From the NCBI RefSeq assembly GCF_018977255.1, contig NW_024704742.1, forward strand, positions 94,676,001 through 94,740,000: a stretch of 64,000 nt of DNA, read 5' to 3'. The stretch comes from Callorhinchus milii (lineage: Eukaryota). Position 1 is the stretch's first letter. The number at the start of each line of letters is the position of its first letter. This document shows positions 23,986 to 47,090 of the stretch, piece after piece. The notes beneath the pieces are model-generated. The model saw only the letters and a list, made by a program, of their open reading frames with translations, made no database searches and was not told where the DNA came from. The position numbers and the translations under genes were made by a program.

Positions 23986-24608
23986 CTCTCCCTCCGTCAG
24001 TGTGCTCTGGTCTGCTACATGTCTCCCGCCCTACCATCGGTGGAGTCCTGTAGCTCAGTGGTCAGAACACTCGCTTTGCAAGTGAGAGACCTGAGTTCAA
24101 TTCCAGTCAGGGCGAAACCTTGGGCAAGTTTCCTTACTCCACACGCCTAATGATAATCCCTCCAAAATCAAAAACAATAATAAATTGGTCATTTTCAATC
24201 TACGAATGTTTGTGGGACATTGCTGTGCGCAATTGGCTGCCGCGTTCGCCACAGTCAATTCACTTTACAGTGTGTTCTGTGAAGCGCTTTGGGACGTCCT
24301 CCCGACATGAAAAGCGCTATATCAAATGCAAGGATTATTATTATTATTATTGTTGGCCGGGCGTTCAGCCTCTCTGCCCCCACACTCTGGAACTGCATTC
24401 CACGGTCCCTTCGCCTCACTTCCTCCCTTGCCTCCTTCAAGACCCTTCTCTTCGATCGTACCTTTGGTAGCCCTCCCACCTCTCTGCCTTCCCTCACTCC
24501 TCCGCCACCCCTCCCCCGTGCTCGGGGCCCCGACACCTGACTGTTCAGCGCTTTAGGGTGTCCTCCCGACATGAAAGGCACTCTATAAATGTAATTTTGT
24601 TGTTGTTG
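23986..24608 (+). mobile_element. L2 3' fragment split by a SINE
   Basis: 23986-24041 and 24355-24608 join into continuous L2 sequence ending in (TTG)n, 80 bp upstream of an exon. Confidence 0.85.
24042..24353 (+). mobile_element. Full-length tRNA-derived SINE nested in an L2 fragment
   Basis: Same head and tail as the 28861 copy; interrupts L2 sequence ACCATCGGT|GGCCGGG. Confidence 0.9.
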
Positions 24609-24687
24609 TGGCTCTTAGGGATGATCCATACAGGAGCTACTCGAGAGTTTTTTTTCATGCCTTTTTCACTCCACCGTTGTATTGCAG

Positions 24688-24819: not shown

Positions 24820-25892
24820 GTGAGTATGCACTCAACACTCAATCATCCATTGAAAGCAGGTCACTTCTGAGTTTACAGTTGTGAACAACTGTATCTATTG
24901 ACAATCAGACAATAGTTTTAGTAAAATCTAATGCTCTATTTACAACAATACCTGAATTAACCTTTTTTGAATTGTCTTCAAGTTGACCAGACCCACCCAC
25001 CATAAGAGATTGTCTTAAATTCTGGATAATTTGGAGCAAACGGCAATCTGGATAATACTTCATTGCTTCACGTAAAGGCAGCATACAAGAATGACTAGTA
25101 GTCACTGCGATATTCTCTAGGACATTGAAGTAAAAATGTTTGTTCAAAATAAAATGCCTTGGCTGAACCATGTGTAATATTAGTGACTTTTGAATAAAGA
25201 GGTTTTAGCTGATAAACTATTTTCTGAAAGTTAATTGGAACAGGAACAATTAGACTGGAAAAGCTTCTTCATAAAATGAAAGTGAGCAAGTAGGACTAGA
25301 CTAGTCTGCCTTAAGAGAAAGGTGATGTACTGCTCCTGAAGTTTGCAATTATCTTGATTAGTGCAGTCGGAGGTCAAAACTTGAAACTTAAAGGTGTGTG
25401 GGGATCATGTTCATAGGCAATATGGAAACATTCAGTCAAAAGGTAACACAATCTGCCCTTTACATCGCCAATGCAGAGCAGACTCCACTGTGAGTGCATG
25501 AGTTTGGAAGAGGTATATGGGAATTATTACAAGTCGAGTAATGTGGGAAGTAGCAGAAGTATAGATGCATGTGGAGGAGAAAATCCCTGGGGAAGAACAG
25601 TGGTGATGGAGAGTGAAAGGTTTTGTGAAGGATCAGGAAAGCTGATTGGGTTGGGGATAATTGATCATTTGCTGGGATCATATTGTAGGTGGCAGAAATG
25701 GCAGAAGACAACCTAGCAAATAGGTTGCAGGTGAGGAGAAATAGGTAACTGGTATTATTTCTTTTGGGGGAAGGGGGAAAAATGATAGAAGCTTCAATTT
25801 TTCTTTTGGGGGAATAAAGAGAAATAATGCCATATAGAAAATTTATATTATATAATTAAATTTCATATTTTGTTTGCTTTTAATGTTTCTAG

Positions 25893-26084
<192 letters not shown>

Positions 26085-27270
26085 TAGCTCACATGTATTT
26101 TCTGATACTGTAAGCCTATTCTCAGGACTACCAATCGAAGTTGAGATTTTTGCTGATGTGTTATGATCATGAATCTGTAATCTGATACCTGAAGCATGCA
26201 GATCACTAGTACTTCAAAGGTACTGTTAATGGCAGATAAGCCAATATGGCTTAATAGCAGGACTAGGAGGAGCAGATCTTTGAGAGTTGGGCTTTTTCCC
26301 ACTTAGCTCCTATTAACCCTGCAAACCAAAGCAGAGATAAGCTTGCTCATGTTCGCAACTGTAATCTACATAGTTTTAGCTGGTTAAACTCCAGTATTAC
26401 CTCCAGTGCACAATATAAGGTCCTCAAGACTTATCTCTTGCTAACCTGGACCTTAGTTGGGATTCAGTAAGCAGAGTGTGTCCCTCTGGGTAAGAGAGGG
26501 AGGGACTCCATAACAGAATGGGCACTCCATAACATATTAGTGCTCTGCTGTACAAATAAGCTGAAGCACCCGGAACTTGCTTCCCTGGAGGAGGTAGAAG
26601 TGAGAGCTGAGAAATCAAGAGAACACACTGGAACATTACAGTAGAATAATTAAATTAGTATTTCAAAACGGCAAAGAATAAAGCAGTAATACAATTCGAG
26701 TCACATCAGGTGAAAAAAAGAACATGTTTGGACTGGGAAGAGAGTTTTGTGTGTGAAAGGTCAACTTTCAGGTGAAGAGGATATTATGATTACGTACTCT
26801 GGATACAAAGATTGCTCCTCGTTCATTAATTTAAGTAGGAAGTAATTCACCGAAAGCTGTTTTCTGCATTAACATGTTGAGGATTGAAGGACCATTTTTC
26901 TGCTTAATAAGTTAAAATTTTACCTCTCTCTCGTTCTCCATCCTTCTCTTGTTCCCTCATTTATATGCTTATTTGAAGAATATTGTGCACTTAAATATTA
27001 TCTCATATAAAATAGTACTTTTACAATATTGGGCAATTAACAATGTTTACACCCAGTATTCTTTGTTATAAACCTCAGTGCGTATTCAGTGTTTGGAGCT
27101 TTCAGTCACAGTGTACAAATATCTTTGTGAAACTGGTTAACAATATAGAACAACAGCAAACTGTTCAGGATTCAAGAAAAATGATCAGCCTAATACTAAT
27201 GGCATCAATAAAACAACATCTTATAAAATACGAAGTTTTGTAGTTCAATACCACATATTCTGTTCCAAAG

Positions 27271-27431
27271 GGTAATCAGATAGGAACAAGAGAACTGGAA
27301 GAGATGGGAGCTAAGTTCTGCATTGGCCTTCTACGTCTCAAGAGGTTGACATCGCCTGTGGAATATAGACTGCCTCGCAGCTTCCTGGATGTGGAAAGGG
27401 ATTTGATTGAAAACAGATGCAGTGTCACCAG
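27271..27431 (+). CDS. AGTPBP1: AGTPBP1 penultimate coding exon
   Basis: ccaaag|...|gtaggg; [53 protein letters not shown]. Confidence 0.96.
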
Positions 27432-28860
27432 GTAGGGCCTCACCTAATGCAGCTGATTGAGTACACTGAACCAAATGAAAAATTAATTCAAGTTGCCTTT
27501 GTTGGGCAAAGAATTTTTCAGAACCCAAAGGCCGAATGCTTTTAATAAATTCCCGGAATTGTCTTCGTAGCTATAGAGTTGAGAATATAATGGATGGGAG
27601 GATTTGAGACTGAATTGTTTCTCTTTGACCCTTCCACTCTGTCTCCTACCCCCCCACCCTCATTCCCCATCTGTTGCACATTTGTAGTTTTTAAACTACA
27701 AATGGATTTTAAAAAAAATGCAGACAGTTGAACTGATTTACTAAATAATTATATATACAAAGTCATTTATCTAATCTTTGTATTGAAATCATAAGTTTTA
27801 AATCAAATCTTTTGGTAATAAACTACTTCCCCAGGCAACTTGCGCAGTGTTGGACATTTCACAGCTGCAGAGCTCTTTTTTTCTGTCAGCAAACTTCAAA
27901 AGGGGCTTATGAGATTTTTTTTTACTCTCCCCTTATTGAAATCAGTGTGGATCTAATACACAAGTGTTCTCAGAGAAAATTTAAGAGAAAATTGAAACAT
28001 GTGCCATAGTTTCAAGTGTGTCACCAGAGGTATTCATTCATATACATCGAATTTACATACATATACTGTACAATGCGGAAACAGGCCATCTGGCCCAACT
28101 AGTCCATGTGGATGTTTATACTCCACATAAGCCTCCATCCTCTCCTAATCCCACTCTCCTAAATCAGTCTATTCCCTTGTGTTATTTTTTAAAATCAATT
28201 TTTTTTATTAACCTTTTACACTTTTGCCCAGTGATGAGGGGGAAACAGTACTAAGATCATGTCCTAACATTGTTCATCAATCATTCACCTGTGCCACGAC
28301 AAATTTTTGGTCAGTCAGGTGTCTGACACATGCAGAAACCCAGCACCATTCTTAAGAATATCCAAACCAGACAGAGTTCCACATTTGTATGCCACCCCCA
28401 CATGGAAATGTTCCCTGTGTCTGGAATGGAATGTGTGCTGTCTACCTGGAGGTATGCACTCTGCCTACCTAATTCCAGAGAGTATTAGGTGTAGCTTGGC
28501 AAGAGCTACACCTAATACTCCCAGAATGTGCGTTGGAGTACTGCTGGATTTTAATCAACTAAAACCACATAGCAAATACAACGAATAGCTTTGAAATCCT
28601 TCATCATTGACAATTTCCATGGAAGATAAACTTCCTACCTTTCAAAGCGATGACTATACCAAAAATTGTGATGGAGTTGATATATTTCTATGTGTGCTTG
28701 TGCTTTGCCAACACAAATTAATGTTGCCCTTGTACTGCATTTTGTGAATTAATGCCTTTTAAAATTGTTCTTACATTTCTTGTACAGAGTGGAAGCTTTG
28801 ATTTAATCAGTAGAGATGACTTCCATTTTGTACCGGTGAACAGATGTTAGGTAAAGCTTA

Positions 28861-29189
28861 GGAGTCCTGTAGCTCAGTGGTTAGAGCACTCGCTTTGCAA
28901 GTGAGAGACCTGAGTTCATTTCCAGGCAGAGGGCGAAACCTTGGGCAAGTTTCCTTACTCCACACGCCTAATAATAATCCCTCCAAAAAAAAAAAACAAT
29001 AATTAAATTGGTCATTTTCAATCTACGACTGTTTGTGGGACATTGCTGTGCGCAATTGGCTGCCGCGTTCGCCCACAAATATACAGTCAATTCACTTTAC
29101 AGTGTGTTCTGTGAAGCGCTTTGGGACGTCCTCCCGACGTGAAAAGCGCTATATCAAATGCAAGGATTATTATTATTATTATTATTATT
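28861..29189 (+). mobile_element. Full-length young tRNA-derived SINE (short family, L2-type 3' tail)
   Basis: tRNA-like head GGAGTCCTGTAGCTCAGTGGTTAGAGC (A box) ... GAGTTCATTTCC (B box-like), body, stem-loop tail, (ATT)n end. Confidence 0.92.
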
Positions 29190-29569
29190 AAATAGACAAA
29201 GGCTTTCTAGTTATGAAGGCAAAGGGAGTGTCTTGGACAGCCATCTTGTTGCAGATAACATAATTTTGCGAATTTCATCAAGTTATAGTATATATATATA
29301 TATCTATACACATCTAAACCAAAATTAAATACCTATCAGCTGCAAACAAAATTAGTTGAGGTAGAAGGACTTTTTTTTTGTTTCTGTGTTCATGTTGTAC
29401 TTTCTTTTTTTATGTTCATTATTTAATTTTTTTTACCGTTACAAATTAGGTTGGTGCTAAGCAGGGTTTTTTTTGTGTGTTTAGAAGTCTTTTGAACTTA
29501 ATTACATCTTGAATTGGTCTGCCTCATAACAATTCTACTTATTGCACTCGGCATCTTAAACATACTGAA

Positions 29570-30070
29570 CCATTCTGAACAAAATGCAACGCAGCCTCAT
29601 TTACAATGCAATGTTTGGGATCCATAAAATTCAACTCTTATTATAGTGAGGCTCAGTAGCAGGTTATACCGAGCGTGAAGTAAAGAGTGATGCACGAGGA
29701 GTGCGCTGGACGGTTCCTGAGCTGAAAGAAAAAATGGCCAACTTCCAGATCAGTGGGTCACCACAACATCACTTCCTGTTGTGTGCACTTGCCCTGGTGA
29801 CCTGAAAGTTGACCTTTTTAGTGCGGGAAGCTAAAATGGTCGCTTTCTGGTTCATAGTTTGCCCCCGATGTCACTTCCTGCTTTGTTAATGTGCAAATGA
29901 TGGAGATCTTTCCGAATGAACTGGAAGTCTGTCATTTTAGTGAAAAAAGCTGTGCTCCTTATGGAAAATAAGCAGGCCCACAGGGTGCATATGGAATGAA
30001 AGGAGTGAACTGTGCAATTGCATTATAAATGAATTTGTGCAATAGTGAAGCAAATTACAGCTTCACTGTA
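29570..30070. mobile_element. Possible old non-autonomous DNA transposon (MITE-like)
   Basis: Left part resembles ~14030-14184 and the reverse complement of ~19620-19700; internal palindromic units; ends in TTCACTGTA, reminiscent of pogo/Tigger termini. Confidence 0.4.
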
Positions 30071-31274
30071 TCACTGCTCCCAACTCTTGAATCCACTGCT
30101 GGAGCTGATGAATGGTTACAGAGAAAAATTACTGGAATATTTATATTTTCAAATGGATAAAAAAAGTGTTTTACAATAAGTAATGGCAAGCAAAGTGACT
30201 ATTTGTATTGGCAAAATGGCAGCCGTTTTGCGCACTGCAAGGTTTCAAAAGGGAGGCACAAGGTGAATGACCAATTTCATCTGGAGGTATATTCTCTTGT
30301 GAATCGTGTAATGGGATTTTTAACATTTACCCAAGTTCAGACAGTAATCCTGTTTAACATTGCAACGCTACACTTCCACAATGTAGTGCTCCACTAGCAT
30401 TGCACTGGAGTGTCACCCAACAGGAGCTTTGAATCCTCAACTTGATTAAGAGACAAGATTAACACCAATTGACGCCTTTATGGACTTCAGAGAATGAAGC
30501 ATCAACTCTTCGCTTTTGGTCTCTTCCTGTCCTTTCAGGAGCCTTCTCTTGCCAAAGCTTCTCTGAGCTAACTCATCTTTCCACCAATCTTCAGTTTTGA
30601 TGCTTCAGTTGCCAGCTCTCTTATATAAAGGAGCTTGTCCCATCCAACACTAGTTATATTAGTTTGGCAGGAAGTTAACTACATTTTGTTCTAACATAAG
30701 ATCTGCCCCTCCAGACCATATTTTATGCTGTTACATCTGTTGGATCAGTTGTTTAAATCCGAGTGGGAGCATAGTGCACATTAGGTGTAAGGTGACAGCT
30801 TACTAAGGATCAATTGGATCATGATGAAGTTTGCAGCAATGGCACAGTGGAGCGAAAAACTTGGCTGAATTTTGACTCGCAGTATTACTTCATTGTCCAC
30901 ACACCTCGTTGTTCATGTTTATTTATGCTTTCGGGTATTTCAAATAAAATTGGTACAATTTCGGCACTTATAGAATGGTGATCATAAGAGAGCGATGAAT
31001 CAAGAAGGACCTTTAAGCCCATTTGGTCTCATCCTTCCAGAAAACTCATGCTACTATCTTCCCATTACACCATCAAGTTATTTCATAAATAGGTCAGATG
31101 TCCTGGGTGAAACCACGCACCCAGGACATCTGACCCATGCTAACCCTTTCCAGTTGTTAATCATCTGTGCATTGGGCTTAGGATTCCATATAGAATCTTT
31201 TTTCTCTTTTCTGCCAGGCTGTTCAGTTGAGATGTCCTCATAGAGAAGAAGGGGCAGTAGGTTGGTGAGGTACT

Positions 31275-31529
31275 TAAGTAAGTAGGAACCCAGTTGTTAG
31301 TCAATTGGCGGATTGCTTTTCCAGGAATAATATTCCCTCCAAAAAATAATAATAATTTGGTCACTCAATCCATGACTGTTTGTGGGACACTGCTGTGCAC
31401 AATTGGCTGCCAAGTTTTGCCCACTAAATATACAGTCAATTTACTTTACAGTATATTCTGTGAAGCACTTTGAAACGTCTCCAAGACGTGATAAGGCGCT
31501 CTATCAAATGCAAGGATTATTATTATTAC
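31275..31529 (+). mobile_element. 5'-truncated SINE (longer subfamily)
   Basis: Matches body and tail of the 14185 copy. Confidence 0.85.
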
Positions 31530-32899
31530 TTTCACGTTCTGTATTTTTGCACTTCTCTTGAGTGGTTGTCTAAGCCACCTACCTATCTGTGGCTATCACT
31601 TTTGGGGGTGGGCAAGTGATATTGTTTTTCTAAGCCACAGATAGGTGAGTAAAATAACTCTAAAAGATGGGGAGAGAGGAAACAAAATTAAGGTTCATGA
31701 ATATGAAAATGTGGGCAAATTATACACTATGGTTACTAAACATTGTAAATTTCACACGTTGTAACCTATATTCATTGGCATAGTTGTAATACTCTGGAAG
31801 AAAATAATGACATAAGATGGATTTGTTGACAGGTCTCCAAAGCTCTGAAGATGAATTGCAATGGGTGGGTGTTGGGGAGAGGTCGCCAACGTTGCCCTCT
31901 GGTTATCATACTCAAATCATAAAGAAGCACTGTAAAATGGTTCTGTAAGAATTGGAATCAGCTGTGATTCTAATGTTTCTGAATCCGATGGTTATTGTTC
32001 TACATAAATCTTAAATAACTATCAGGTACAATTAGAATTTAAAATGTATTCATAACTCTTCAAGTTTGCTTGTGTAGATAGGGTGAAAGCTTTCAAATCA
32101 TTCTTGGATCTGATAAGTAGGCTGTGGTGTGATTAATTGAAATAAAAAATGGACCTGATGGATTTTAATTAACAAATTTGCAACGAAGCATTAACCAGTT
32201 TAAGGCAGTCACAGATTGCATAGCATGTCAGTGATTGATCTGCCGATCTCACAGAATCCCAAATGTGTTTCACTGAGCAAATCAGTCCATTTGATTTTTG
32301 CAATCCTTTTGAGCCCTTTAGAGACAAACTCGTTAACTCTTGTGTACTAATTTGTTTCCTAATTTTGCTTTTCAGACCTATGTTTGACACTGAATAAAGT
32401 GCTCATTGATTGTTTTAATATCACTATTTGTCATAAAATTGTCTCCTATTTGTCATGAAAATAGCTTGAAGATGGAAGGCATCACAAGAGTTTGTTTCTC
32501 ATGCACATTTAATAAGTTTTGTGCTATTTTGATGTTTCATAAGATCATGAAAGATTCAGGAAAGAAGGCCTTTCAGCCCATTTAATATCATCCTTTCGAA
32601 ATACCAACCTTTTCATCATCTCATTGCATCATCAAGCTGTTTGTTAAATGCATTGTCCACTGTCCTCTGTCCTGACTTCACTCCCTAGTTATCCATTTCA
32701 GCTGTTGAATTCCTGCTTTCATGATACCTGATTACATCTCTAGCTGTGTGGCAGAGAGAGAGTGCAATATGTAGAGTTTTGCTCTCGATACTCTGTGTAG
32801 ATTCTTTGGATTGGTATCAAGTCGTGCGGTTCAGCTCAGCCGCTCTTGTGTTCTTTACATATCTGTGGAAGTATGGTTTAAATATTATTAATTCTCCAC

Positions 32900-33630
32900 T
32901 AGATCACAAGAAGTTCGGATGAAGAAGGCCCTTTGGACTATTTAATATCATCCGTCAAGAATATCAACCCAACCATTTTCCCATTACAGCATGAAGCTGC
33001 TTTTTAAATGAGTCCAGTGTGTTGGCCTCACTCAACTATAACCCACTCCAGCTGGTGACATTCTCTCACTAAAGAAATACCTCCTCGTGTTTGACCTATC
33101 ATTATTCCTCACCACTCTGAATCTGTGCCCTCTTGTTCTGCTGTCTCAACATATATGAAAGTATTGTTCTGGGTTTACTTTATCTTATATAGTTCTCAGA
33201 TCTCCACTGAGATGTCCCATCAAGGGTGAAGACTCATAGTTTATCTCGTTATTCCTAACAGATCATCCTTCAAACGATGGTTACCAATTTTGCTGTTCTC
33301 ATCTGCATTGCCTCTTGGTCCTGGGCAGCCCCCTTAAGTCACAGTAACAAGTTCTGTAGGAGCAGCTTGACCTACGCATGTATAGCTTGAATTTAGATGC
33401 TGAACTCAACTAATATTGTCATTTGGGTTATTATCATGTTCACTTTGCTTCCTGCTGCTTCACACCATTTAGACATTGTGATTGCCCAGTCAATGGCTTG
33501 GTTACTTACTTTCAGTTTTCTTGATAAACTCTATGCCATGCGTGGAGTGTGTGTGCCTCATATTTATATGCCCTATAAATACAGAACCTTGCATTGTCTA
33601 TATTGAACTTGATGTGCCTGTGATCATTTC
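32900..33630 (-). mobile_element. Old CR1-like LINE fragment
   Basis: Begins with the same tail family (ATCACAAGAAG..GATGAAGAAGGCCCTTTGG) followed by degenerate ORF2-like sequence. Confidence 0.6.
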
Positions 33631-36600
33631 AGTTATATTACATCTATTTAATGTGTAATTTGATGTGTATAACTAGTTGATCTAGTGTGTTACTACCAAG
33701 AGTTACGTGATTATTAAAGCAAATTGGCTATTTCCGACCATGACTATTTCCTAATTTGGCAGTATATTTTTGATGGATTTGCTAAAATTGTTTTGTTATA
33801 GTGTAGTTTGTAGGACTCGGATACAATTATATATTTTTTTGGCTGGTGCTTTAGCTAAATAAATGCTTTCGACATGTTTACTTTGTCGGATGTCAGTAGC
33901 CAGCACTTTCTGGGAAAAATCCCATTCTGTGAAGTTCTACAAAATAAGAGTGCATGTTCATGTTTTTAAACTTGCAGCTGAATTGTGTCCTTCTGATCGA
34001 CTTTCCACACAAAAAGAAACTGTTTAAGGATGCATTTTGCTGCTATTGAAAAACCCGTAACTAGAAATGGACAGTTATTTGAACATTACATTTGACCTAC
34101 TGTAAAAGTTCAAAACAGTGAGATTTTTATGTTTGTTCATGTGTACTTGTAATGTAATTATAATACTGTGATCCATGGAAAATGCTTTAATTATAATTGA
34201 AATTGTAATTGAAATTGTAATCCATTACAATTAAATAATTGAAATTATTTAATTGTAATTGAAAATGCTTTAATTAATCTATAGAAAAAATTGTTTCGTG
34301 CATTCATATCAAGTCAAAAAAGTCTTTTTTTATTGTCAATTTTACTCCCAACCCTTATTGAAGGTCATTGCTGAGAGTATGGCAAATGTGGCTTGACAGT
34401 GAGTATTGGCAGGCATTTACACTTGAAGGACATCACTTCCTCAGACCAGTTCTGTCCTCACCTTATGTGCACCTGTATTAAGGGTAACATTCAGGAGCAG
34501 GAAACACAAATGATTTTCCCCAAGGGTGAAGAGGCCTGTGTTGCAGCCTTATTGCTGTTTTGGCAGATTAGCTAATTAGCACAGACCAGGGTTTAAAACC
34601 TGGATCAAATCATATCTACACCATGTAACAAAGCAGTTTTGGTAAAGCAAAACTCTCAACAACCTCATCTGCTTTGCTTTTGTGTCCTTCATTAGGTGGT
34701 GGATCTATCCACTGAGTCTTTAAGAGAGCTTGAAAGAAGTGCTGTAACTTTTCAGCTGTGGAATGTATGGGACAACTGGTTCAATGCGGATGTTGTCCTT
34801 TCGTGGAAACCAATCAGACTTTGCATGATATAATCAAAATCATACAAAATGCCTCGCTACGTGAAAGGCGCTGTACAAATGTAATTTTGTATTGTATTTT
34901 AAGGATGGAAGTGGAGTTAGATCTTTTTGATTTCTTTTTAGGATCAACCACCATCAGTAGTTGATCTGACATTTTGAATGACTTGAGTAGAAAGTGTTAC
35001 AGAAGACACAGCTAACCACTGAATTCAGTTATATTCTAAAAATGTTTCACTTTGTAGGTCTTATGATTTCTTCCAATCTGTGTCTCTGGAGTTCAGCAAG
35101 AGTTTTAATTGATCCTCAATTAAAATGAGTAAGGATTGACACTGATATCGCACCAAGGGGCTTTCAGCAGCTCGATTGTGCAGAAGTGGTCAAACACCGC
35201 TCAGCCAGGCTGATAAAGTGATCATTTGCGATGCAGATATTTGAAAACTGTTAACAATATAATCAATATATATTGAGCTTGGCAGAGTGCTTCATCACCC
35301 TAACTGGTAACCAAAGATCTTATTTAGACAAATGTCAATCAGTGCTTTGGTATTGAAGTATTGACTGGTGGAAGTAGTGTGGAGGGCATTTGCGTGATGG
35401 CCTAAAACATTCTGGGTGGATCTTTACTTATTCTTGCATGTTGCATGTTACAAAAAAATGTTTTGATAGATTTAGTGCTGCGTGCTTGTATTCTGAGAGG
35501 ATGGTTCAGTAACTAGTCATGTATTGATCAGGGTTTTGTGACCGGTTTTGTATGCAATGTTGCTATTTCACACAGAATCAAACTACTAATCATTGGACTT
35601 AATCATAGTCAGCCTTTATTGCTGTTGTATTATTGAACAAAGTGAAGTAACACTAATAAAAGTCAAAAGATGTTTACTATAAAAATTAGTTTTTAGTGGC
35701 ATGTATATATTTTACACACCTGCACGTACATCTTACATGTATAGTATAAGCATTGCTCAGTGAATATTGGCTCTAAGTTTAAAAAATAATTTGGCAATTC
35801 AATGTACACAAAACAGCTATTATTGTAATTTCATCTGGATTCAGATTGCTGTATATATTTTGTATTATTATGCAACTTTTGTTCACAGCTCTATATTGCT
35901 TTTTGGTTTCAGAATTAAAAACTGAAATTGAGTAATGTTAATGCCAGCTTTATGTATGCAAGCAATCGATGGATGCCATGCAATTTATTAACTTAAAACA
36001 ATGTTCACTGTAGTGTGTCTGCTTCACCACTTGAGGGTGCAAAATGATTTCCATAACATAAAGAACAATCTCTTAGCATGAAGGGATCCAATAGACCACT
36101 TTCTAACTCGCTGTCAGTTTTGCTTTTCTCTGTTAATGCTTGATTGTAAAATAAATAGTCTTAAGAAATCTCAAAGCCTCCTCTTTGCTTATTTTAACCA
36201 CCAAGGTTTGAGAGAGTAATATGATCTAGATTTGGAATGTTGTTTGCAGTTTTGGGTATCAGAAGGGGGTTTAGACAAGAGAACTCTGATTTGCTTCTGG
36301 GACTGAGAGAGCGAAGTTGGCAGAAAACAGTCGCAGAGCTGATTTCATTAGAAAAAAGGTGATTGAAGATAGATGTGATCGGGGTCTTTAAAATGCAGAA
36401 AGGCAAAGATGAGGAAAATGTAATCAGGCTCATCCATGAGAACCAACCAAAAGATATAGGTTTACAATTAAAATGAGACTGGAGATGAGAAAATTCCACA
36501 TCCCCCCGACTCTAATGGATATTTCCCAAGAAAAGCAGTTGATCAGTTAACTCCTTCATAAACAGCTCAATAAGTATCAATATCATACTGTAGTATACAG

Positions 36601-37883
36601 GCATAGGTGCAGCCTGAAATGGTCAAATATATAGGAAAACAGTAACAGGAGGAGGCCATAGGGCCCATTGGGCATGTTCCACATTTTATTAGAAACTGGG
36701 AGGTCTTTTAATCCCAAATCAAGAGACACAATTATCTCTGTTCTTTGGAGACTGGGGGGGGGGGGGGGGGGGGCGGGGGAAGGATAAGGAAGAGGGATGG
36801 AGGTCATGTATGTGTAGCATCAACTCATTTAAATATACAATAACCTTAACCCTACACTAGGGTTACAATATTTTTTAAATCAACCATTTAAAAATACACA
36901 GTCAATCCACTTTACAATATATTCTGTGAAGCGTTTTGAGATGTCTTAACAATGGGATATGGCGCTATATCAAATGCAAGGATTATTATTATTCCTTAAG
37001 TAAGGTAACTGTCCTGGTGTCAGTAGCCTGTCAATCAGGGCTACAGTATTCCATCACAGACGCTGACTGTAGAAAGACTGCAGATGCTAACGCTGGTAAT
37101 TCAAACTGAGTTGTGCTCAAGGATTTCACTCTATTACCAGTTTTCCAGCCTGATTTGTCATTTGTGATAGACCACACACGATTGTCAAGCCAAGGAGCTG
37201 AATGTTTGTAACTAAAGGAAGTTTGCAAAGCTTTTCATACAAAAATGTAGGTGTAATTTCGCAGCCTCGGCAGTGATCGTCTTTTTCACAATCTGGTAGT
37301 TCTGATCATTATACGTTTGGGAGCAGAGGTATAGATTAAATGTAAAAATGTTGATATTGAGTCATATTCTTTAGATGCACCCTTAGTCATGCATGATTTT
37401 TCATATATTCTGTATAATAATCTAATGCTTTGCAGTCTACAGTTCTGCCTGCTTAAACAGTGCACAGCCTTGGCAGCAATAAATCCACATGATTAAGTAT
37501 TTTCTTGGCAGCTTTGTGTCCTGTAATTGTCAGACTCTGAAACAAGCTTGTCTCGTTGTTTGTACAGCTGATAATTTTAATAGACGCCATGATAGATCCT
37601 TTTGATCTTTCTTCAATTTCTTGTTACATGACAAGATTCAATGTCCTGGATCCCATAAAAATGAACTACTCGAGGGCTGGGTTCACAGAACATCAGAACT
37701 GCATAATCCACCCTGCTATTGCCACAGGATGGAAGTTTGGCAAATCATGTGTACTCTTGACTTTGTTCTCACAATACATCACTAAAAAATATAGAATTAA
37801 AAAAAGTAATTTAAACTATTTTTCTTGCCTTTAAGTAATTTCATTGCAAGATCACTCCTAATATCACTCTCCTAATATAAACA

Positions 37884-38092
37884 GTAATAATCCCTCCAAA
37901 AAGCAAAGCTATAATAAATTGGTCATTTTCAATCCATGACCGTTTGTGGGACACTGCTGTGCACAATTGGCTGCCGCGTTTTGCCCACAAATATACGGTC
38001 AATTCAATTTAAAGCATATTCTGTAAAGCGCTTTGAGACATCTAGAAGACGTGAAAAGCGCTATATCAAATGCAAGGATTGTTACATTATTA
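37884..38092 (+). mobile_element. 5'-truncated SINE
   Basis: Body and tail match the 28861 copy; tail-to-tail with the 38424-38746 copy. Confidence 0.85.
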
Positions 38093-38423
38093 TAGTAGTT
38101 TTAACACTGATCTTCTCAAGCAGTTTGTTGGATAGTAAAAGTATCTTGAAAGAGGGCAGGTGAGAACAAGTACCCCCATTGATTTCTCTAGTTTTACTTT
38201 CTGTAGTTAACAGCTCTATTACTGAGAAAGCTCATAGTTGTCAGCTGGTTGTACTCTGTGAACCTGATATACAGCGGTCTTGTTGAATCCTTTAAGCTGT
38301 GAGAACAGTCAAGCCCACAACATGATGAGCTAAGGAGAGCGGAGACAAGAGTCAATATTATAAACTAGTAATAATAGGCAGTAATAACTATCTGAACTGT
38401 ATCAGACAATGGAGTACAGCTTC

Positions 38424-38746
38424 AATAATAATAATAATAATAATCCTTGCATTTGATATAGCGCTTTTCACGTCGGAAGGACGTCCCAAAGCACTTCACA
38501 GAACACACTGTAAAGTGAATTGACTGTATATTTGTGGGCGAACGCGGCAGCCAATTGCGCACAGCAATGTCCCACAAACAGTCGTAGATTGAAAATGACC
38601 AATTTAATTATTGTTTTTTGGAGGGATTATTATTAGGCTCTGTGTGGAGTAAGGAAACTTGCCCAAGGTTTCGCCCTCTGCCTGGAATTGAACTCAGGTC
38701 TCTCACTTGCAAAGCGAGTGCTCTAACCACTGAGCTACAGGACTCC
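38424..38746 (-). mobile_element. Full-length young tRNA-derived SINE, near-identical to 28861-29189
   Basis: Reverse complement matches the 28861 copy with only a handful of differences. Confidence 0.92.
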
Positions 38747-40079
38747 TAAGCTTTGCCTAACATCTGTTCACCGGTACAAAATGGAAGTCATCTCTACTGA
38801 TTAAATCAAAGCTTCCACTCTGTACAAGAAATGTAAGAACAATTTTAAACATCAAATATCTGAACTGAATTATTTAAATATTTTCAATAATAACAATACT
38901 CACTTGGTATGTTGGATCTCAGCATATCGTTTAAGAACTTAAATCCATTCTGGGGTAATCTGGATTAGAAAAATCCAAACAGTGTCATGTGACATAGTGT
39001 ACATAGTGTAGAAATAATCTCTGATCAATTGTTTGCCCACAAAATACAAATTACAGTATATTCTGGTAAGTGTTTTAAGATGTCCTCCCAATGTACAAGG
39101 TGCATCAAATGTAAGGATTTTTTTTGTGGCAAAGGAATGAGGGAAACAGAACATCTGTGGACACAGAATACTCAGAACTTCATGATGCAAAAAATGTCTC
39201 TCAGAAAAGCTTTGTGACATTAATGTGCATATAGGTGGTATTTATAGGGAGTGTCAGTGGGCAGTGGTGAGGGTACAGCTTTTAAAGTATGAATGGATAT
39301 TTTCAACCAATTATGCTTAGTATTTTGGTCCAAAGTCACAATAATAAGTTTAGTGAAAGAAATATTCCACTCACTTGCAATGGTTGTGTACCTTCTGTTT
39401 TGTTTTTCCGTTAGATGTTTACTAACAAGTTTCTATAAATGGAATCTTGTTGTTGTTGTTGTTTTGGTCCCTACTCCATTCGCATTGTTGCAAATGTTTA
39501 ATGTTCATTTATTAGCCAGTGTCAAACAAGAAACAATTTCAACAATTTTGGCAAGTCTCATTGTTATTTATTAAAACGTCAAGTATTTAAAGGCATTATT
39601 GACTCAGCATTTTTATCTAAATTTCACCTAGATTTCATTAAGGCAGAGTAAAGTATGAAACAACAAAAACCTATTGACATCAAATTTCTGAGCTGTATTA
39701 ATTCTCATGGTCTTTGCCTTAAGACCATTGCGTAGAATTTATACATTATTGGAAAATTCTTGAATTTATTGTTAATTTGGAAGCTATGCTCCTCAGTTCT
39801 TAAAGAAAGCTTGCATTTATATAGCACCCTTCAGGCGGGATAATGTCTTGTTTGCACTTGTGATTGCTTGTGAGATGAATGATCAGTTAATCTGGGGTTG
39901 TTGGTCGTACTTTAAAAATAAATGGTGCACATCAGGAGTGAGATCACGGAAATAATGCACTTCTGAACACAAAATATTATTTTTCTAATTGCTGCAGTTA
40001 GTGGTGTTGGCTAGAAAAACTGCGGCCTTTCAGCGGATCTTAGAAGAGATTGAGGAAGTAATATTGAGCAATATTTTGA

Positions 40080-40360
40080 GAAATTTCAGGACAGGAAGAA
40101 AGAATTCAGATTCAAGGAAGACAGGGCACAGGTTCAAGGTCACAAAGGGGAATTTTAGGACAGTCACCAGTATTTCTTTACACAGAGCACAATAACAGCT
40201 CGAGGGAGTTAGCAACAAGCGTGAGAGAGGCCAGGTTGCAGAATTCGTACAAAACAAATGACTTGATACAGTGATGGCAAGATGATAATCTTGGTATTTT
40301 GGGAAGGCTAAGATCAAATGGGCCTAAGGGCCTTCTCTGTCCAGACTTCTGGTGATTTAC
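40080..40360 (+). mobile_element. Old CR1-like LINE 3' fragment
   Basis: TGHRFKV..G.FRT....FFTQR-like coding remnant and AAATGGGCCTAAGGGCCTTCT tail; related pieces at ~42510-42727 (+), 30980-31140 (-), 32540-32700 (-), 59580-59850 (-). Confidence 0.65.
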
Positions 40361-43300
40361 TAGCGCTATGTAAATGCTCTTGTGAGAACTAGTTGTACAA
40401 TTAGCTAGTTATACTATATTCACTTGATTTTGAGTTTGGATTTCATTGCCACTGAGCAGAAACAGCCAAGTCAATTCAAGCAAGTCCCATTAAATTGTTT
40501 ATTGACATGAAGATACTATTCTGACTTAGAATGATTGAATGCTGGGTGTGATATTGTTTTGGGAAAAATGGGTGGGTGGGTGGGAGGTAGCTGATGATAG
40601 TGATCGAAGTTTCCTGCTGTTAAGAGAGTTCCACGAGTCCCTGGACAGGTTGAAATTGGATCACAGAAATGTGTGACAGATGGAGTGCTATGCCAGTCTG
40701 AAAGATTGAAGAATTTACTCTGCAATGTTTGACCCTTTGTAAAAAAATTAAGATTTGATTCCCACTCTGCATGCACAACAGCTGTAAAACTATCTGTAGC
40801 ATAACCTGATTCTTGATATGAACAAATCTTTAAAAAAATAGTTAATGCTCAATGCCAATTTCTAAAAAAAATTAAACTTATGTTCTCTCAGATGAGCAGC
40901 TAACATACCTGCTGTTAAAAACCCAAATCTAGGGTCTTGTAAGCAATATTTGTTTTCTCCCCTCTGAATGATTTCTGAATAAAATCTTAGAAAACAGAAA
41001 TAGAAAACAGATATTCTGTGAAGAATTCAGTTTTTGGGAATAAATGTGAATTAAAATTCCATTGAAAATCAGAAGAGCGTAACGGGTACATCTGTTGTAA
41101 ATGCTGTACATAGATTTCCCCCGTGTGCAATAAGACAAATACTTAAATTCCATAGTCCGAGCTGAAAGAGTTCTTGGTGACTTCTCTGAAATGCAATAAG
41201 CAGTGAAGTGACCCGAAGAGCGCAAATTTAATTTCATTATATAGCACCAAGCACTGCTGTAAGAGGGCCCAGCTCCATAGGGAAATACTGTCCCCAGACC
41301 TAATGGTCTTTAATTGTTGCTTCGCTCTGCCATAGATACCACTTGAAATGCCTCGTGACATCATTCCACCTTAAGAATGTATGCAATTAGATCTCTGAGC
41401 CCGTACTTACTTACAAGTTTTAACTGGCTCGATAATTTACCTACTGTTCGAGAAACTTTCCTTTTTGCTGAAATTATAGTGGATAACCAGCCATGGTATA
41501 ATGCCAATTATAATTGTGTCCAATGAACACATTTGCAGATTTACAAAGACTGTGTCCTATAACCCACTAAATTAGCTTTTTTGCTCCTCTTAGGTTCCGC
41601 GTTTCATATGAGACGTTTATAATAATTAACCCTTTAATTGATCTAGCAACTTTCATGTCAGGTGGCAGTCTCAAAGCACTTGGCAGGATTTGCTGTAACA
41701 TGTAGTGACTCTGTATTTTATAAGTGTAACATTAAAGAATTGAGTTTGATTGTCTTTACCGTAATGTTCTGGAAGGTCATTTCCTTTTTCAGCATGGTTA
41801 GAAGTTGAAGGTCGGATAGATTGATTTGGACTGAAATGTGTCTCGTAAATTGTATGAGGTTAGCTCTTTATTGCACTATTTTTATATCCTATCTACCTTG
41901 GTGTGTTTTGCATTGAGGAAGATGAGCAGTGTGCAGTGTCTTGGTTTGTCTTCTATTTGTGCATTGCTGGTGCTGACAAACTACACAAAATTCACATAAT
42001 TATTATCTACAAATGCCTTATTCGTAACCCAGGAAGAAAACCTTTCTCACCATGTCCGGAATGTTTTTGAGCAAATTGAACTTCCAGGGCATAAGAATTT
42101 GCCAGCAATCATTTTATTTTCCCTGTTTTTGTGTTTTTTTTTCTTTCCTTGTGCCATTTAGCATTCCCTGGTTTTGGAGCAGCGGTGGATAAGTGACCTG
42201 CACCATCTCAGTGTAAATGCCAATCCTGATCTGTGCCAGCAAGTCAGAGAGAGTAGCCGGGGTGACTCGGGTTATTTTCTGCCCTCCCCCTTGCATCCAT
42301 GGCTCAGTTTGTTTCAAGTCTTTTTTTTGACATTGGCAAGTTTTTTTTAATGTACCACAGAATATTAATATAAATATAGTATGTAGTTTTGATGTAAAGT
42401 GGTTCAATAGATTCTATCAAAGAATATAAGATTAAAGCTAATAACTAGTGATGGGCTGAATGGCTGTCTGTGCTGTAAACTTTATATGATGCTTTATCCG
42501 GTGCAATTATTTGAGAGGAGCAAATACCAGGAAATATTTCATTACCCAGAGGGTAATTAAGGACTAGAACAGGTCACCGGGAAGATAATTTAGGTCCAGA
42601 TGCTGAACTCGCTTAAGAAACTGCTTGATGCTGTGAATGGGAGGACAGCAGGGTGGATATTCTGGGAGGATGAGATCAAATAGGCCAAATTGTCTTATTC
42701 ATCTGAACCTCTCTTGTGGTCTTGTGATTAAAGGTGTGTGTTCTTGTGCTGGTCTGTCTCTGTGATTTGCAAGGCTAATGATTATGTAAATTTTGGATTA
42801 GTCATCGGTTACACAGCAGTAAAACTTTTAAATACTGTCTTCTAGGAAGAAGAAAAACTGCATTAAAGGGCATTATTTTTCAGTTTTGTTGCTTTACTGA
42901 AAGGTTAGCCAGCTACATTCGATTGGTCTATTTGAAGCACATTTGTGGAAAAAAAAACGAGCATTGAAGCAGTATATCCAAAAATCTTTGATTTTTTAAT
43001 TGATCACTAGAGACCAAAAGTACCCCGAAAACATGGTTTGCACATTTTCAAATTGTTGTCTCAGTACTGCTGTCATCGAAGAGCAAATATTAAGTCAGTG
43101 CGCAAAACTGAGCAAACTAATGAATGGGGAGGGATTGCGGACAGTACTGGAAGCTGTTTGTGGTTGAACGACTCACACCTCCTCAGTTTCATCTTGAACT
43201 TCTTTGATGCTTTTTTTATCCATCTTAGGCCTCCGTTCGATAGGACTGAAACTCGACTCCCACTTTACACATGCACACCAGTCAGACTTGCACCTGTGCC

Positions 43301-44556
43301 CGGGTTAGTAAAAGGTCAAAGTTCAGAATGTCAGAATAGCCAACGATTACATTTGTAGTCCACGGAGCTGACCTGAAATCCTCCTTTTACTCATTTTGAG
43401 CAGTTTCAGCAGATCTGTAGAGAGCTGTGTCTCAGGGCTCTGGCTTTCTCTTGCTAGGCCAGCGTTCTGGGACTTTTGCAAATAAAAAAAACTGTACTCT
43501 CGTATTTCAGGGCTTGAAATCCAACAAATTAATGGGAATCTGTTTTTATTTGATTACGGTGAAAAACTGAGAAGTTGTAGACCTTAATGGGGGACCCACA
43601 CTGGATTTTGAACTACTGTACTTACCTAATGAAATATTGAGAAGCACTTAGCGCTGCCAAACAAAATCTTTAGCTGCCCTCCAGGGAAAGTAGGGGTCGG
43701 ATGGTTGCTTGTTTTTCTTTGCCTTTGTCCCAACGAGCGTTCGGTGACTTGACGGGAGTCTTGTTTTTCAAACCTCTACACTTGCATTAATGGCAGCTAA
43801 TCGCTTTACCTTGAAGAAGTGTTTTAGCACATTACTGGAGGAAACAATTAGAGTGTCTGCAAGTTATAACATGCTCCTGAATTACCTGGTGCCTTGGAGA
43901 TGCATGAGAAGAAAATTGAGTTTGGTCGGTTCAAGTGTGTGGAAGCTTCAGTTCAAAGCTGCAGCAGACTTTGCTACGAATATTCCTTGAAATCTCTGGC
44001 TAAATGGTATTGAGAGATTTCTACTTGTGATAGAGCATTACCCGGTTTAACAATAGGTCATTGAGTAAATCGTGTGTAATTTAAACATAATTAAATTTAA
44101 AACCAGCAAACGTAACAACCTGAATGGAATAATGAGGATGTCCATCTTGGCCCTACATTTTTCGAATAAAATTAATCTCTAAACATTTTCTAACTGCTGT
44201 TTTTTATAAAAAAGAACGATTTTTGTGGTGTAATAGAAGATAAAGGATATTTAGATATTCAGGTGCATTCTGAACGCTTAACACTTAGAATACTGTCTGG
44301 TTTGGAGAAACTCAACGGCAATAACATGCATTCATATAGCACCCTTCAGGCCAGGTAGCGTTTCGGAGTACTTAACAGTGACTCCTGTTTCTTTTCAGGT
44401 TGTACGGTACTACAGAGTTGATTTATTTTACTGTAATATTCCTGTAATAACAAATTAAATTAAAACCCCAATCTTAAATGCTTTACCTAACCTTGCCTTG
44501 TCAAACCTTTATTCTTTCTACTCTCTTTTTCCTAACCCTTTCTCTGCCCTATTTTG

Positions 44557-44977
44557 AATAATAATAATAAAAATCCTTGCATTTGATATAACGGCTTATC
44601 ACGGTGTTGAGACGTCTCAAAGCATCTCACAGGATAAACCGTAAAGTGGATTGTATCCACATTGGACTATATCCACAGTTGCGCACAGTAATGTCCCACA
44701 AAGAACCATGGAGTGAGTGACCAATTTTATTTGGGGGCCAGGACATTTGGGAAAAGCTCCCTTCTCTTTTTGAATAGTGCCATGGGATCTTTAACATCCA
44801 CCTGAACAGACAGATGGGACCTTGGTTTAACGTCTCTTCCGAAGGATGGCATCTCTGACAATGCATCCCTAGCACTGCATTGGAGTGTCAGCTTAGACTG
44901 TGATTCCAAGTCCCAACTTGAACCCACAACCTTCTGACTCAGTCGAGAGTCCTACCAACTGAGTCAGACTGACCCAC
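44557..44977 (-). mobile_element. DeuSINE-like element (tRNA head + Deu core + L2-type tail)
   Basis: Minus strand reads CTCAGTTGGTAG...GGTTCAAG, then GACGTTAAACCAAGGTCCC..CTGTTCAGGTGGATGTTAAAGATCCCATGGCACTATT, resembling the Deu core of SacSINE1/AmnSINE1/SINE3 as recalled. Confidence 0.8.
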
Positions 44978-45454
44978 TGAAACTTTTTTTTTCTCTTCTA
45001 CCTACCATAAACCTTTTTTTTTAAAAAAAAGCTTTTATTGCGGTTTTAAACCTTTCTTTTTCCCCCAACGGACCTCCTCTTCCACCTGAGGGTGGCAGCA
45101 ACACTTTTTCCTCAAAAGTTTTTCATTCACTTTACTTCAGCTTGGGAGACTGCCTCAAATTGGGATGACATATTTCCTCCTTTAACAAAGGGATTTCCAC
45201 GAGAAGAAAATACACGTTAGATGTAGCAGATCTGTCACACTTTTAGCTTAATGCAGATGCAATAACTATGAAACACAATTTAAATCTTTGTTGCATTAGC
45301 TTCTCACTACTTCTTTAGAGGTACAATCTTAAGGATCATCCACCTCATTCACATCAGTCAGAGTTGCCCCACTTAGTCACTATAGATTACAATGGGTGTT
45401 CCAGACATAGTTTCCTGCCACTCAACTGCAGATTGTTTCTGGATTTACAAAGAA

Positions 45455-45875
45455 TGTACAGCATGCAAACAGGACTCAGCCCAAACAATCCATGTTTATA
45501 CTCCACGTGAGTCTCCACCCATTCCTTTACTCCTTCCCATACTCTTTTATTCCCCTCTCTCTTATGTGAAGGGCTAACTTCCTCTTGGACGCATCTACAC
45601 TATCTGATTCAACCACCACTTCAGTCCCACAATCTCACTACCTTATGCATACCCTCGTTCTAAATTCTCTTTTAGATCCCCTAGACTCCCCAACCAGTGG
45701 AAACAGCTTGTTTATGTTAACCTTATCAAACCCTTTTATAATTTTGAACACTTCTATTAGGTCCCCTCTTAAACATCTCTGGAGAGAAAAAGGCCCAATC
45801 TATCCATTCTATCCTGATAGCAGTAACGTACCAGCCTTGGTATCATCCTCATCAAGTTGCCATCCTTGCTTTAAA
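45455..45875 (-). mobile_element. Degenerate CR1-like fragment
   Basis: GCATCTACACTATCTGATTCAACCAC and CCCTTTTATAATTTTGAACACTTCTATTAGGTCCCCTCT (RGDLIEVFKIIKG on minus strand). Confidence 0.7.
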
Positions 45876-47090
45876 GCATGGTGATGTATTTCTCTGTGTG
45901 TCAAACACCCGGCTGACAAAAAAAATGGATATGGACATGCACACCAATTTTTCAGGGATGTGATTTAATCATGCCATTCGGCTGACAGTTATAAACTGCT
46001 CGAGTTTTGCTGTCATGGTTTATGACATCATTTGAACTCTTTGTTGCATTTACTAATGAATATTTGATTTGATGGAATAATTGTCTCTGCAAAATATTAT
46101 TTGTAGGTTCAGTCATGTACTTCGTCATGTTGCATTCAAATATTTTATTTAAATAATGGTTGAATCTGAAATTTATGCCTTATTTAGTGGACGTACACAC
46201 TTTATAGTATTTGGAGAAAAATTGGTGGATTGAATTATGTATTAGCCATACCATTTCCCGATGCACTTGACGATTCATCCTATTGCGTGTTGTGTTTTCT
46301 CTGGAGAGCAACCGGGGGATTGTATTCCAGCTCCAGCAGAGATCTGCTCTGACAAAGCCTCAGATTTCAGCTTTAAAAAAAACACAATGAAGGTCACTAA
46401 AGTCTTTCCATTTTGGATCATTGTAAAATGCACCGTTTTCTGCAGGGCAACCCCTCTCCTGATCAATTTGGGGTATTATATTATCAGAACCATTGGTTTC
46501 AATTTTCTATTGATCAGTATCCCTCAGTATTACAAAGGGGTCTTTTACTGATATAAAAACAATATCGCCAGTATGGACTAGGTTGCTTGTTTCAGTGTAT
46601 TCTTGTAAAAGCCAAGTTATTGTTGCTGCTACTTTGTACTTTAGGATCTAAAGTGCAAATTAGAATTAGACTTTAAAACATCTGCTATTATACAAAGAAT
46701 CCATAGGAAATAAGGCTCGTGTGCAATGATTGTGTTTAACAATGTGCAAAGCCTGGCTGGATTCAGATCATTCCTATATTGCGGACAAGTGTATGGGAGT
46801 TTAAAGGTACAGCATACCAGCATTGTGCTGTAGTATTACATTTTACTAACTGCAGCACATGCACTCGAGTTCTTTAATCTGTGTTTGTGGTTGGCCAAGC
46901 AGTCTTAGGTCATCAATTTAGTGGAGCCTTACATTGTGTGTTAAAAGCATCTTTAAAAATATTTTCATTTCTGTACCATAAGATAAATTAATTCCTGCAG
47001 TTGTTTGGTTTTTAAAGGTTGCAGGATTTCCACTGAAATCTTACGGAACTGTTGGTTTTCAACGTTGTGTGTGTTTTTCTGTGTCCACAG

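Follow-up and report, generated by a model that had tools for sequence, protein, structure and literature searches.

The window, by which we mean the whole 64,000-nucleotide stretch of Callorhinchus milii DNA that was analysed, is free of N letters and contains exons of a cytosolic carboxypeptidase gene, recognised from the exon translations and their GT/AG ends; from the protein sequence we take this gene to be AGTPBP1/CCP1-like. Pfam domains PF18027 and PF00246 were detected on two of the six exon-bearing frames scanned, and seven of the nine frames scanned, including three LINE-like fragments, gave no Pfam match. The last intron of the gene holds two SINE copies in opposite orientation, each with the same 5' flank. 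Both arms of this inverted pair lie within that one intron (27432-47090), as an earlier note on this DNA had stated, and together with their interior they make up 51% of it. The inserted left arm contained one weak 5' splice-site-like string, and no strong 3' splice site was found in it. The parts of the locus are listed below, where records 1 and 6 are contigs of run X1.

24042..24354, + strand: a further full-length member (the third) of this young SINE group, whose 5' flank is unrelated; it served as the control for the SINE 5' end
27432..47090, + strand: last intron of the carboxypeptidase gene (19,659 nt; GT/AG ends)
~27271-27431 and 47091-47286, + strand: exons bordering the last intron, upstream exon and last coding exon
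28758..29189, + strand: left arm, interpreted as a derived polymorphic insertion made of donor flank and a whole SINE (alignment; absent from X1 record 1)
28758..28860, + strand: copy of the 103-bp non-SINE flank, its first three bases being the TTT microhomology
28861..29189, + strand: full-length tRNA-Ala-derived SINE copy (ARAGORN; Rfam RF00005, 36.4 bits; family alignment)
28864-28934, ~29113-29152 and 29166-29189, + strand: head, predicted 3' stem-loop (fold of 29095-29189) and (ATT)8 tail of the left-arm SINE
29190..38423, no strand: 9.2-kb interior, collinear with the left flank and uninverted (X1 record 1)
37885..38093, + strand: older 5'-truncated SINE copy, inverted to the donor (85% identity) and 331 nt from the right arm
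38424..38746, - strand: donor SINE, antisense to the host gene, with an (ATT)7 tail
38747..38849, - strand: 103-bp flank native to the donor SINE, running on unbroken past 38850 (X1 record 6)

The arms had been described as reverse complements, and local alignment confirmed this. Positions 28758-29186 of the forward strand aligned with 38849-38424 of the reverse strand over 432 columns at 97.0% identity, with 4 substitutions in 423 ungapped columns and two indels, one of 3 nt (AGA, present in the right arm) and one of 6 nt in an A-run. The tail contains eight ATT units in the left arm, where it reaches 29189, versus seven in the right arm. The substitutions were spread evenly (1 in 103 positions of the flank, 3 in 320 of the SINE), as is expected of a single copying event. 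Within the flank, 28758-28860 and 38849-38747 were identical at 102 of 103 positions (E 1e-48), and no third copy was present in the window, where the remaining matches reached at most 20 nt (E 0.7). When the 801 non-self HSPs of a BLAST pair screen were filtered for stretches of 40 bases or more matched by one partner only, at an identity of at least 80%, only two separated pairs passed, the arms and an 87-bp pair at 15470/16339, together with two self-palindromes. No target site duplication (TSD) was evident at the outer ends of the arms, including any of 3-5 bp, in agreement with the earlier note.

ARAGORN identified tRNA-Ala(tgc) heads at 28864-28934 and 38673-38743, both with RF00005 above its gathering score; across 23000-40000 the three tRNA heads were the only Rfam matches above gathering, four others being at chance level. 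The diagnostic strings said to be common to both arms and missing from the SINE copy at 24042 were indeed distributed in this way. Among the aligned copies in the window, the donor SINE stands apart by an insertion of 3 nt and two C>T changes. An AAGCT, a candidate TSD, flanks it on either side, offset by 1-2 bases.

We compared the window with contigs of four of the 24 runs listed, namely X1 (same species, other sample), X5, and X15 and X17 (organism B). The comparison comprised table pieces from 25 records, and the statements made from it hold among the matches listed. Record 1 of X1 (2457 letters) placed 407 letters on 28355-28760 and 2032 letters on 29199-31229, collinear and on the same strand, and carried 18 letters between 28760 and 29199 where the window has 438 (29159-29198 was skipped in the comparison). 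Record 6 (731 letters, depth 9.08) covered 38729-39459 unbroken, with 2 other letters and no gap, reaching from 18 bases inside the SINE head across the entire flank and over the outer junction; the depth of the other listed X1 pieces was near this value (3.9-7.8). Since one X1 contig has an empty site on the left and another keeps the right-arm flank on its outer neighbour, the right arm served as the donor for an insertion that is now the left arm, and the 9.2-kb interior has kept its orientation. Within the species the presence of the left arm is polymorphic, which the note had not considered; the empty allele was seen in one contig of one run (X1) and the filled allele is known from the window, its junctions occurring in no contig among the matches listed. 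The single mismatch claimed for the shared flank was found, but the 103 bp consist of about 100 new bases plus a 3-nt TTT microhomology (28758-28760), these three bases being common to target and donor because the arm-less contig matches through 28760. The listed contigs of the organism B runs X15 and X17 lay on 27207-28480, 32341-34637 and 35052-36739, and none among the matches listed bridged a junction. One 2-nt indel of the SINE had a share of 2% in one arm versus 11% in the other, with some differences uncounted in this comparison, and loose ends at 28930 in all four runs suggest that many copies of the SINE family lack the extra AG.

Taken as a whole, the evidence makes it very probable that the left arm really exists as a polymorphic insertion and that the right arm was its template. 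The earlier view that the left SINE is not an independent insertion, and that the event was recent and local, is upheld. Inverted duplicates flanking a segment are the textbook signature of a staggered-break inversion, and the note had proposed that 29190-38423 was inverted with the arm duplicated at both ends. Such an event predicts a strand change, and there is none in record 1, where the left outer flank runs straight into the left edge of the interior, both read on one strand; in record 6 the right arm is still attached to its own outer flank. In the comparison with another haplotype that the note had called for, the collinearity of the arm-less contig contradicts the inversion and leaves it with almost no probability.

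A SINE subfamily with a 100-bp 5' extension, of which the arms would be two independent members, would explain the tail-exact ends. A repeated flank would be expected, from the way contigs are built, to break and deepen a contig, whereas record 6 is unbroken over the 103 bp at single-copy depth and runs on into unique sequence. The extension was found in two copies in the window and at single-copy depth in X1, and two members of a rare subfamily would hardly lie 9 kb apart. The 103 bp are thus not part of a common repeat, and the 5'-extended variant that had been suggested is extremely improbable. Somewhat different evidence bears on an assembly artefact, in which the left arm would be a misplaced copy of the right arm, perhaps from the other haplotype. 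X1 lacks the left arm, the left-arm junctions are in no contig among the matches listed, and the arm divergence is near haplotype divergence, all of which would fit an artefact. It is nevertheless very improbable in our judgement: both junctions are clean and preserve the collinearity of the empty site within 9 bases, there is no N anywhere in the window, the point at which the insert stops makes biological sense, and with a left-junction homology of 3 nt an assembler would not be expected to make the join unless reads spanned it.

The arms have diverged by 0.95%, close to the divergence between X1 and the window (18/2437 on record 1, 0.74%; 29/7034 over eight listed pieces), as expected of a polymorphism. 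With the clock of 1.0-1.1e-3 per site per My given in the accessible part of a published study (PMC5499810), the copy would be 4.3-4.7 My old, with a 95% range of about 1-12. The left-arm insertion is probably a neutral intronic polymorphism of a few million years, and the locus, taken singly, probably a neutral structural polymorphism. We see in it a copy-paste scar of familiar type and fairly recent date, neither an inversion nor a new element.

We then weighed the routes by which the copy could have been made. The left arm has the structure of a 5' transduction, with unique upstream sequence joined to an element and a 3' end at the tail. A true transduction would involve an antisense read-through transcript that starts at least 100 bases upstream of the right SINE and ends at its tail, is retrotransposed by L2 enzymes with 5' truncation at TTT, and lands 9 kb away. 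The exact end of the copy at the (ATT)n tail, the intact predicted 3' stem-loop and junction features compatible with L2 insertion are consistent with this, and L1 and SVA cases driven by upstream promoters appear in the available text of PMC12350158. The transcript would, however, be antisense to the host gene, and upstream of the donor on the donor strand we found no CpG island (CpG o/e 0.07-0.54 in six of six bins, 38850-47090) and no TATA match (38747-39200). The flank appears single-copy in X1, so that the source made no other close copy there. Moreover, the computed chance that a diffusible RNA would land less than 10 kb from its source is about 2 in 100,000 (~2e-5), unless it acts in cis, a value so low that it argues for a local template. 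A true 5' transduction is, on this evidence, quite unlikely.

The origin that we favour, with a likelihood somewhat short of even, is a single local, DNA-templated copying event. A DNA end would have arisen at about 28760/29190 and been primed on the SINE (ATT)n tail, either by an L2 reverse transcriptase starting a normal target-primed SINE insertion there or by direct pairing of the AT-rich end with the tail. The growing bottom strand would have annealed to the inverted SINE 9.2 kb downstream, by fold-back on its own strand or by strand invasion, and been copied through the SINE head and about 100 bases of unique flank; after release it would have been joined to the left end through the 3-nt TTT microhomology, with the loss of 0-9 target bases. 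We infer that the product would resemble a 5' transduction without needing an upstream promoter. As far as the accessible sections of the sources go, L2-clade insertions show TSDs that are short or missing, slight truncation of the target, microhomology at the two junctions and flank-derived 5' extra bases (PMC2666801, PMC4245944), L1 insertions can carry local inverted duplications primed by 2-bp homology (10.1101/2024.12.14.628481), and human germline inverted duplications are a known class of structural variant with a median of 284 bp and mostly 1-15 bp of microhomology (PMC12350158). Some points count against the DNA route. A donor 9.2-9.7 kb away is far for template switching (the part available of one MMBIR screen describes a search within 100 bp; PMC8421209), and a tail-exact end is equally expected of an RNA template. 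Over the 186 bp at its 3' end the left arm has no identified derived base in common with the donor, so this portion may have originated from a different SINE RNA.

Twin priming on the nascent host pre-mRNA would use such an RNA. The L2 reverse transcriptase would prime the SINE RNA tail on the bottom strand, the top-strand end (ending in TTTT) would find the AAA of 38847-38849 in pre-mRNA that is still attached, pair with it and copy the flank and the antisense SINE, and the two cDNAs would anneal inside the SINE. This would account for the locality, the inverted orientation and the tail-exact end with no antisense promoter. A top-strand primer on sense RNA gives an inverted copy, the TTT microhomology is rightly placed, the donor is antisense and within the same last intron, and the lack of shared derived bases in the 3' 186 bp is in keeping with a second RNA. 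In the portions of the reports at hand, L1 is reported to undergo twin priming that involves two different RNAs (10.1101/2024.12.14.628481), and transcribed sequence is over-represented among templated insertions (PMC5110952). We nonetheless consider the route unlikely: no splice or editing imprint was identified in the copy, a 3-nt primer on RNA would be weak, a DNA fold-back would give the same product, and the shared derived indels (2 in the 5' 143 bp of the SINE versus 0 in the 3' 186 bp) are too few to mark a chimera. The SINE RNA-protein particle could possibly have been drawn in by pairing with the antisense SINE in the pre-mRNA. That the L2/SINE machinery of this fish repeatedly uses the nascent pre-mRNA of the cut gene as a second template is, in our view, a rather unlikely generalisation; if true, retrotransposition would here act in cis and be coupled to transcription, and introns would be seeded by this route with inverted repeats that are near-perfect.

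Gene conversion between the inverted SINEs had also been put forward. Its plain form falls, as X1 has no SINE at the left site, but a two-step form survives, in which an ordinary, perhaps 5'-truncated SINE inserts on the left and a later break is repaired by one-sided invasion of the right SINE that runs 100 bases into its flank. The tail-exact 3' end would be explained, long homology would be supplied for invasion at 9 kb, and shared derived bases were found only 5' of 29004; SDSA and intrachromosomal conversion are among the mechanisms listed for non-classical L1 inserts in the section of PMC1920257 available. Two events would be needed on one haplotype within a few My, however, and the even divergence along the arms and the X1 site lacking a SINE also speak against this course, which we hold to be improbable.

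The note had further suggested that the arms could form a long dsRNA. On energy grounds the two arms could pair as RNA (-789 kcal/mol for the left with the right arm, versus -272 for the 37885..38093 copy with the donor), but that inverted copy, 331 nt from the right arm, is closer and would be expected to compete as the nearest pairing partner. Mismatch counts in run X5, guessed to be RNA, were 51 A>G and 60 T>C versus 54 and 67 in X1, in tables swamped by genome-wide SINE copies at 80% likeness and taken from contigs, which drop rare variants.

The locus offers a well-resolved example in which the empty allele, the donor and the direction of copying are known, and it shows that additional 5' flank on a SINE can reflect copying from nearby rather than transduction or the scar of an inversion. 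As the species seems to have both filled and empty alleles, it should be possible to test within it how a near-perfect intronic duplex of 420 bp acts on editing or splicing. In a literature search made mostly by title, in open papers without their supplements, we found no case of a SINE that had been copied together with its 5' flank to a place 10 kb away or less.

The comparisons that follow extend to the accessible portions of the reports cited. The CmiSINEs of Callorhinchus milii (SINE2-1_CM, SINE2-1B_CM) are mobilised by L2-2_CM (PMC5499810). The SINE studied here shares with them a tRNA-Ala head, a very high copy number and a 3' region common to other repeats in the window, its putative assignment to the group relying on the tRNA-Ala-derived head (ARAGORN, RF00005); it differs in that the left arm includes some 100 bases of unique 5' flank from the donor and did not insert independently. 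In L1 insertions with local inverted duplications (10.1101/2024.12.14.628481) and ZfL2 insertions with 5' extra bases (PMC4245944, PMC2666801), as here, the element tail forms one junction and inverted local DNA the other, with 2-3 nt of microhomology and little or no TSD. In contrast to those cases, the template here is 9.2-9.7 kb away, the element body matches the local donor, and the insertion is germline and polymorphic; in the L1 inverted duplications, small hairpins on the reciprocal end act as primers, but our donor lies on the tail-primed side.

L1 and SVA 5' transductions (PMC12350158) similarly combine an element with unique upstream sequence and end at the element tail. They stem from upstream promoters and are scattered genome-wide, whereas the present case is one copy 9 kb off, of a Pol III-type SINE for which no promoter was found. 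Germline inverted duplications and MMBIR insertions (PMC12350158, PMC8421209) resemble the left arm as segregating, inverted copies of a few hundred bases with a microhomology junction, but here one end is a SINE tail and the donor lies far beyond the 100 bp searched in the MMBIR screen. The left arm also resembles class 2 TSIPs (PMC5110952): these are polymorphic insertions on a scale of 73-414 bp with an intact donor, microhomology, no TSD of 5 bp or more and a possible microdeletion, and the left arm, its filled allele being known from the window only, is likewise polymorphic, with an intact donor, microhomology and neither TSD nor poly(A). Class 2 TSIP donors are distant regions, whereas the donor of the left arm lies 9.2 kb away in the same intron.

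The inverted-repeat arms of about 430 bp described in the earlier note were present: local alignment of 28758-29186 (plus strand) with 38849-38424 (minus strand) gave 97.0% identity over 432 columns. Of the 423 ungapped columns, 4 hold substitutions; the right arm also carries 3 extra nt, and the length of an A-run differs by 6 nt between the arms. The shared identity was also confirmed to continue past the SINE 5' end, through 103 bp upstream of the head (102/103 identical). This 5' end was set by the third full copy at 24042, whose flank is unrelated. The heads of all three full-length copies are tRNA-Ala-like, a likeness by description, rather than to a Repbase consensus, to the CmiSINEs of elephant shark, for which the cited passages of PMC5499810 give a tRNA-Ala-like head and a tail common to the L2-2_CM LINE. 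The third copy (24042-24354) is nested in another repeat, kin of 17730-18056 and 61935-62244, with a duplication of at most 1-3 bases. These two members of a second repeat family are inverted, 91% identical and 44 kb apart, and the repeat-pair census found no unique flank common to them. Three open frames were listed in the window:
1874-2416, minus strand, open frame
17700-18359, minus strand, open frame
23010-23357, plus strand, open frame
None of the three gave a Pfam match; they presumably resemble fragments of LINE (L2/CR1-type) ORF2.

The host gene, on the plus strand, encodes a cytosolic carboxypeptidase (Pfam PF18027, PF00246). As had been claimed, both arms lie in its last intron (27432-47090) and span about half of it (51%), with no exon between them. 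Judged by its protein, the gene is probably AGTPBP1/CCP1. The inserted arm adds two sense-strand ATTAAA hexamers to this intron (29002-29007 and 29187-29192), one of which arises at the tail-target junction; the first site reads AATAAA in other family copies. Both are possible weak intronic polyadenylation signals.

Contigs from 4 of 24 listed public runs were compared over 27200-40400, with 29159-29198 skipped as repeat. Run X1 comes from another sample of the same species, the best-matching organism, for which four similar samples, X1 among them, were listed. Its record 1 (2457 letters, depth 6.95) matched 28355-28760 with letters 2051-2457 and 29199-31229 with letters 1-2032, on one strand, and has 18 letters between the two matches where the window has 438. 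This contig is the left site without the arm, and the empty site is known from this one contig of one run. Of the 18 letters, nine probably correspond to the unique stretch 29190-29198; the remaining nine are either target bases lost at insertion or ATT-like bases masked by the tail. Record 6 of X1 (731 letters, depth 9.08) lies without gaps on 38729-39459 and spans 18 bases of the SINE head, the entire flank and the outer junction. The empty site and this continuity together establish that the right arm is native, that the left arm is a copy and that the orientation of the interior is unchanged. The staggered-break inversion of the 9.2-kb interior, proposed in the earlier note together with an orientation check of 29190-38423 against another haplotype, was therefore rejected as hardly credible, since record 1 carries the left flank and the unreversed interior on one strand. 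It is also very improbable that the 103 bp belong to a SINE subfamily with an extended 5' end: a repeated flank would be expected to break and deepen the contig, but record 6 crosses it unbroken at its depth of 9.08, and no third copy of the flank was found within the window. The filled allele was not found among the contig matches listed for the four runs over 27200-40400, and none of the pieces listed from the two runs of a second organism bridged a junction. That the left arm was produced by assembly is quite improbable; we take it as a real feature, an inverted copy of the right SINE and flank that is polymorphic.

The arms diverge by 0.95%, evenly between flank (1/103) and SINE (3/320), while X1 and the window differ at 18 of 2437 positions on record 1 and at 29 of 7034 over the eight pieces listed (0.41%). 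Because these divergences are similar, the copy is about as old as the split of the haplotypes. On the clock in the cited passages of PMC5499810 (1.0-1.1e-3 per site and My), it dates to 4.3-4.7 My ago (with a 95% range of about 1-12 My), a rough date because the same passages also quote a rate roughly sixfold slower. Immediately left of the site (28355-28760) the empty X1 haplotype differs from the window at 10/406 positions (2.5%), against 8/2031 to the right; the excess possibly reflects an old haplotype or mutagenic repair.

Any explanation must account for the 3' limit of the copy exactly at the (ATT)n tail, for its start about 100 bases 5' of the head, at a TTT common to target and donor, and for its inverted position 9.2 kb from the donor. 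The chance of a diffusible RNA landing so close is about 2 in 100,000, so the template was local. We tentatively favour, at somewhat less than an even chance, a single DNA-templated event that copied SINE and flank from the right arm. At the left site, a DNA end of the bottom strand would have been primed on the SINE tail, by L2 reverse transcriptase or through AT-rich microhomology; the growing end may then have switched template by annealing to the inverted SINE downstream, and copying would have run through the head and flank before joining at TTT. The long distance between donor and site counts against this route. For L2-clade insertions, the cited parts of PMC2666801 and PMC4245944 describe target-site duplications that are short or absent, targets truncated by a little, both ends showing microhomology, and flank-derived extra 5' bases (clade background in part of PMC4760211).

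Twin priming with nascent pre-mRNA as second template would give the same product with no need of an antisense promoter and, though unlikely, ranks first among the alternatives. True 5' transduction is slightly less likely: because the donor and the host gene run in opposite senses, it requires an antisense transcript, and neither a CpG island nor a TATA match for one was found upstream of the donor. A recurrent nascent-RNA-templated insertion route is doubtful. The gene conversion between inverted SINEs suggested earlier survives in a two-step form, SINE insertion followed by one-sided conversion, comparable to the conversion listed for non-classical L1 inserts in the cited part of PMC1920257, and is improbable. 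Among the SINE copies aligned from the window, two derived indels are common to the arms, both 5' of 29004. None was identified over the final 186 bases, in which the left arm shows the common state and two C>T changes mark the right arm; this distribution suits both the two-step route and twin priming, with too few indels to decide.

The dsRNA formerly proposed from the arms is energetically possible, with a predicted duplex of -789 kcal/mol and perfect runs of 126, 94 and 66 pairs, but the right arm has a plus-strand SINE copy only 331 nt away, at 37885-38093 (predicted duplex -272 kcal/mol), which would compete as a pairing partner. In human Alus that undergo editing, the distance to the closest inverted partner averages 682 bp if both are in the same intron (PMC2533698, in part). 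The SINE/LINE tail motif occurs 19 times on the plus and 10 times on the minus strand across the whole window, and many inverted pairs are thus already in the intron. Imperfect palindromes lie inside the interior at 34221-34262 (42 bases) and 31089-31138 (50 bases). The host gene holds a second two-copy inverted pair, 15470-15556 and 16253-16339 (87 bp, 83/87 or 95% identical, 697 nt apart), in otherwise unique intronic sequence between exons at about 13.9 and 17.4 kb, with no SINE at its ends. Local inverted copies may be common in this genome, though inverted pairs are perhaps also spotted more readily than direct ones. A long degenerate GT-rich simple-repeat array occupies 62805-64000, reaching the window end.

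A literature search, mostly by title, found no publication on the copying of a SINE together with its 5' flank to a site less than 10 kb away. L1 insertions bearing local inverted duplications are known (10.1101/2024.12.14.628481, in part); in the cases cited the fold-back sits on the opposite end, a further point against the favoured route. In humans, germline inverted duplications of similar size that carry microhomology form a known class, according to the cited part of PMC12350158. In outline the left arm resembles a 5' transduction, with a hypothetical promoter. It behaves like a locally templated insertion, similar to the class 2 templated sequence insertion polymorphisms that the cited part of PMC5110952 describes but without their distant donor.
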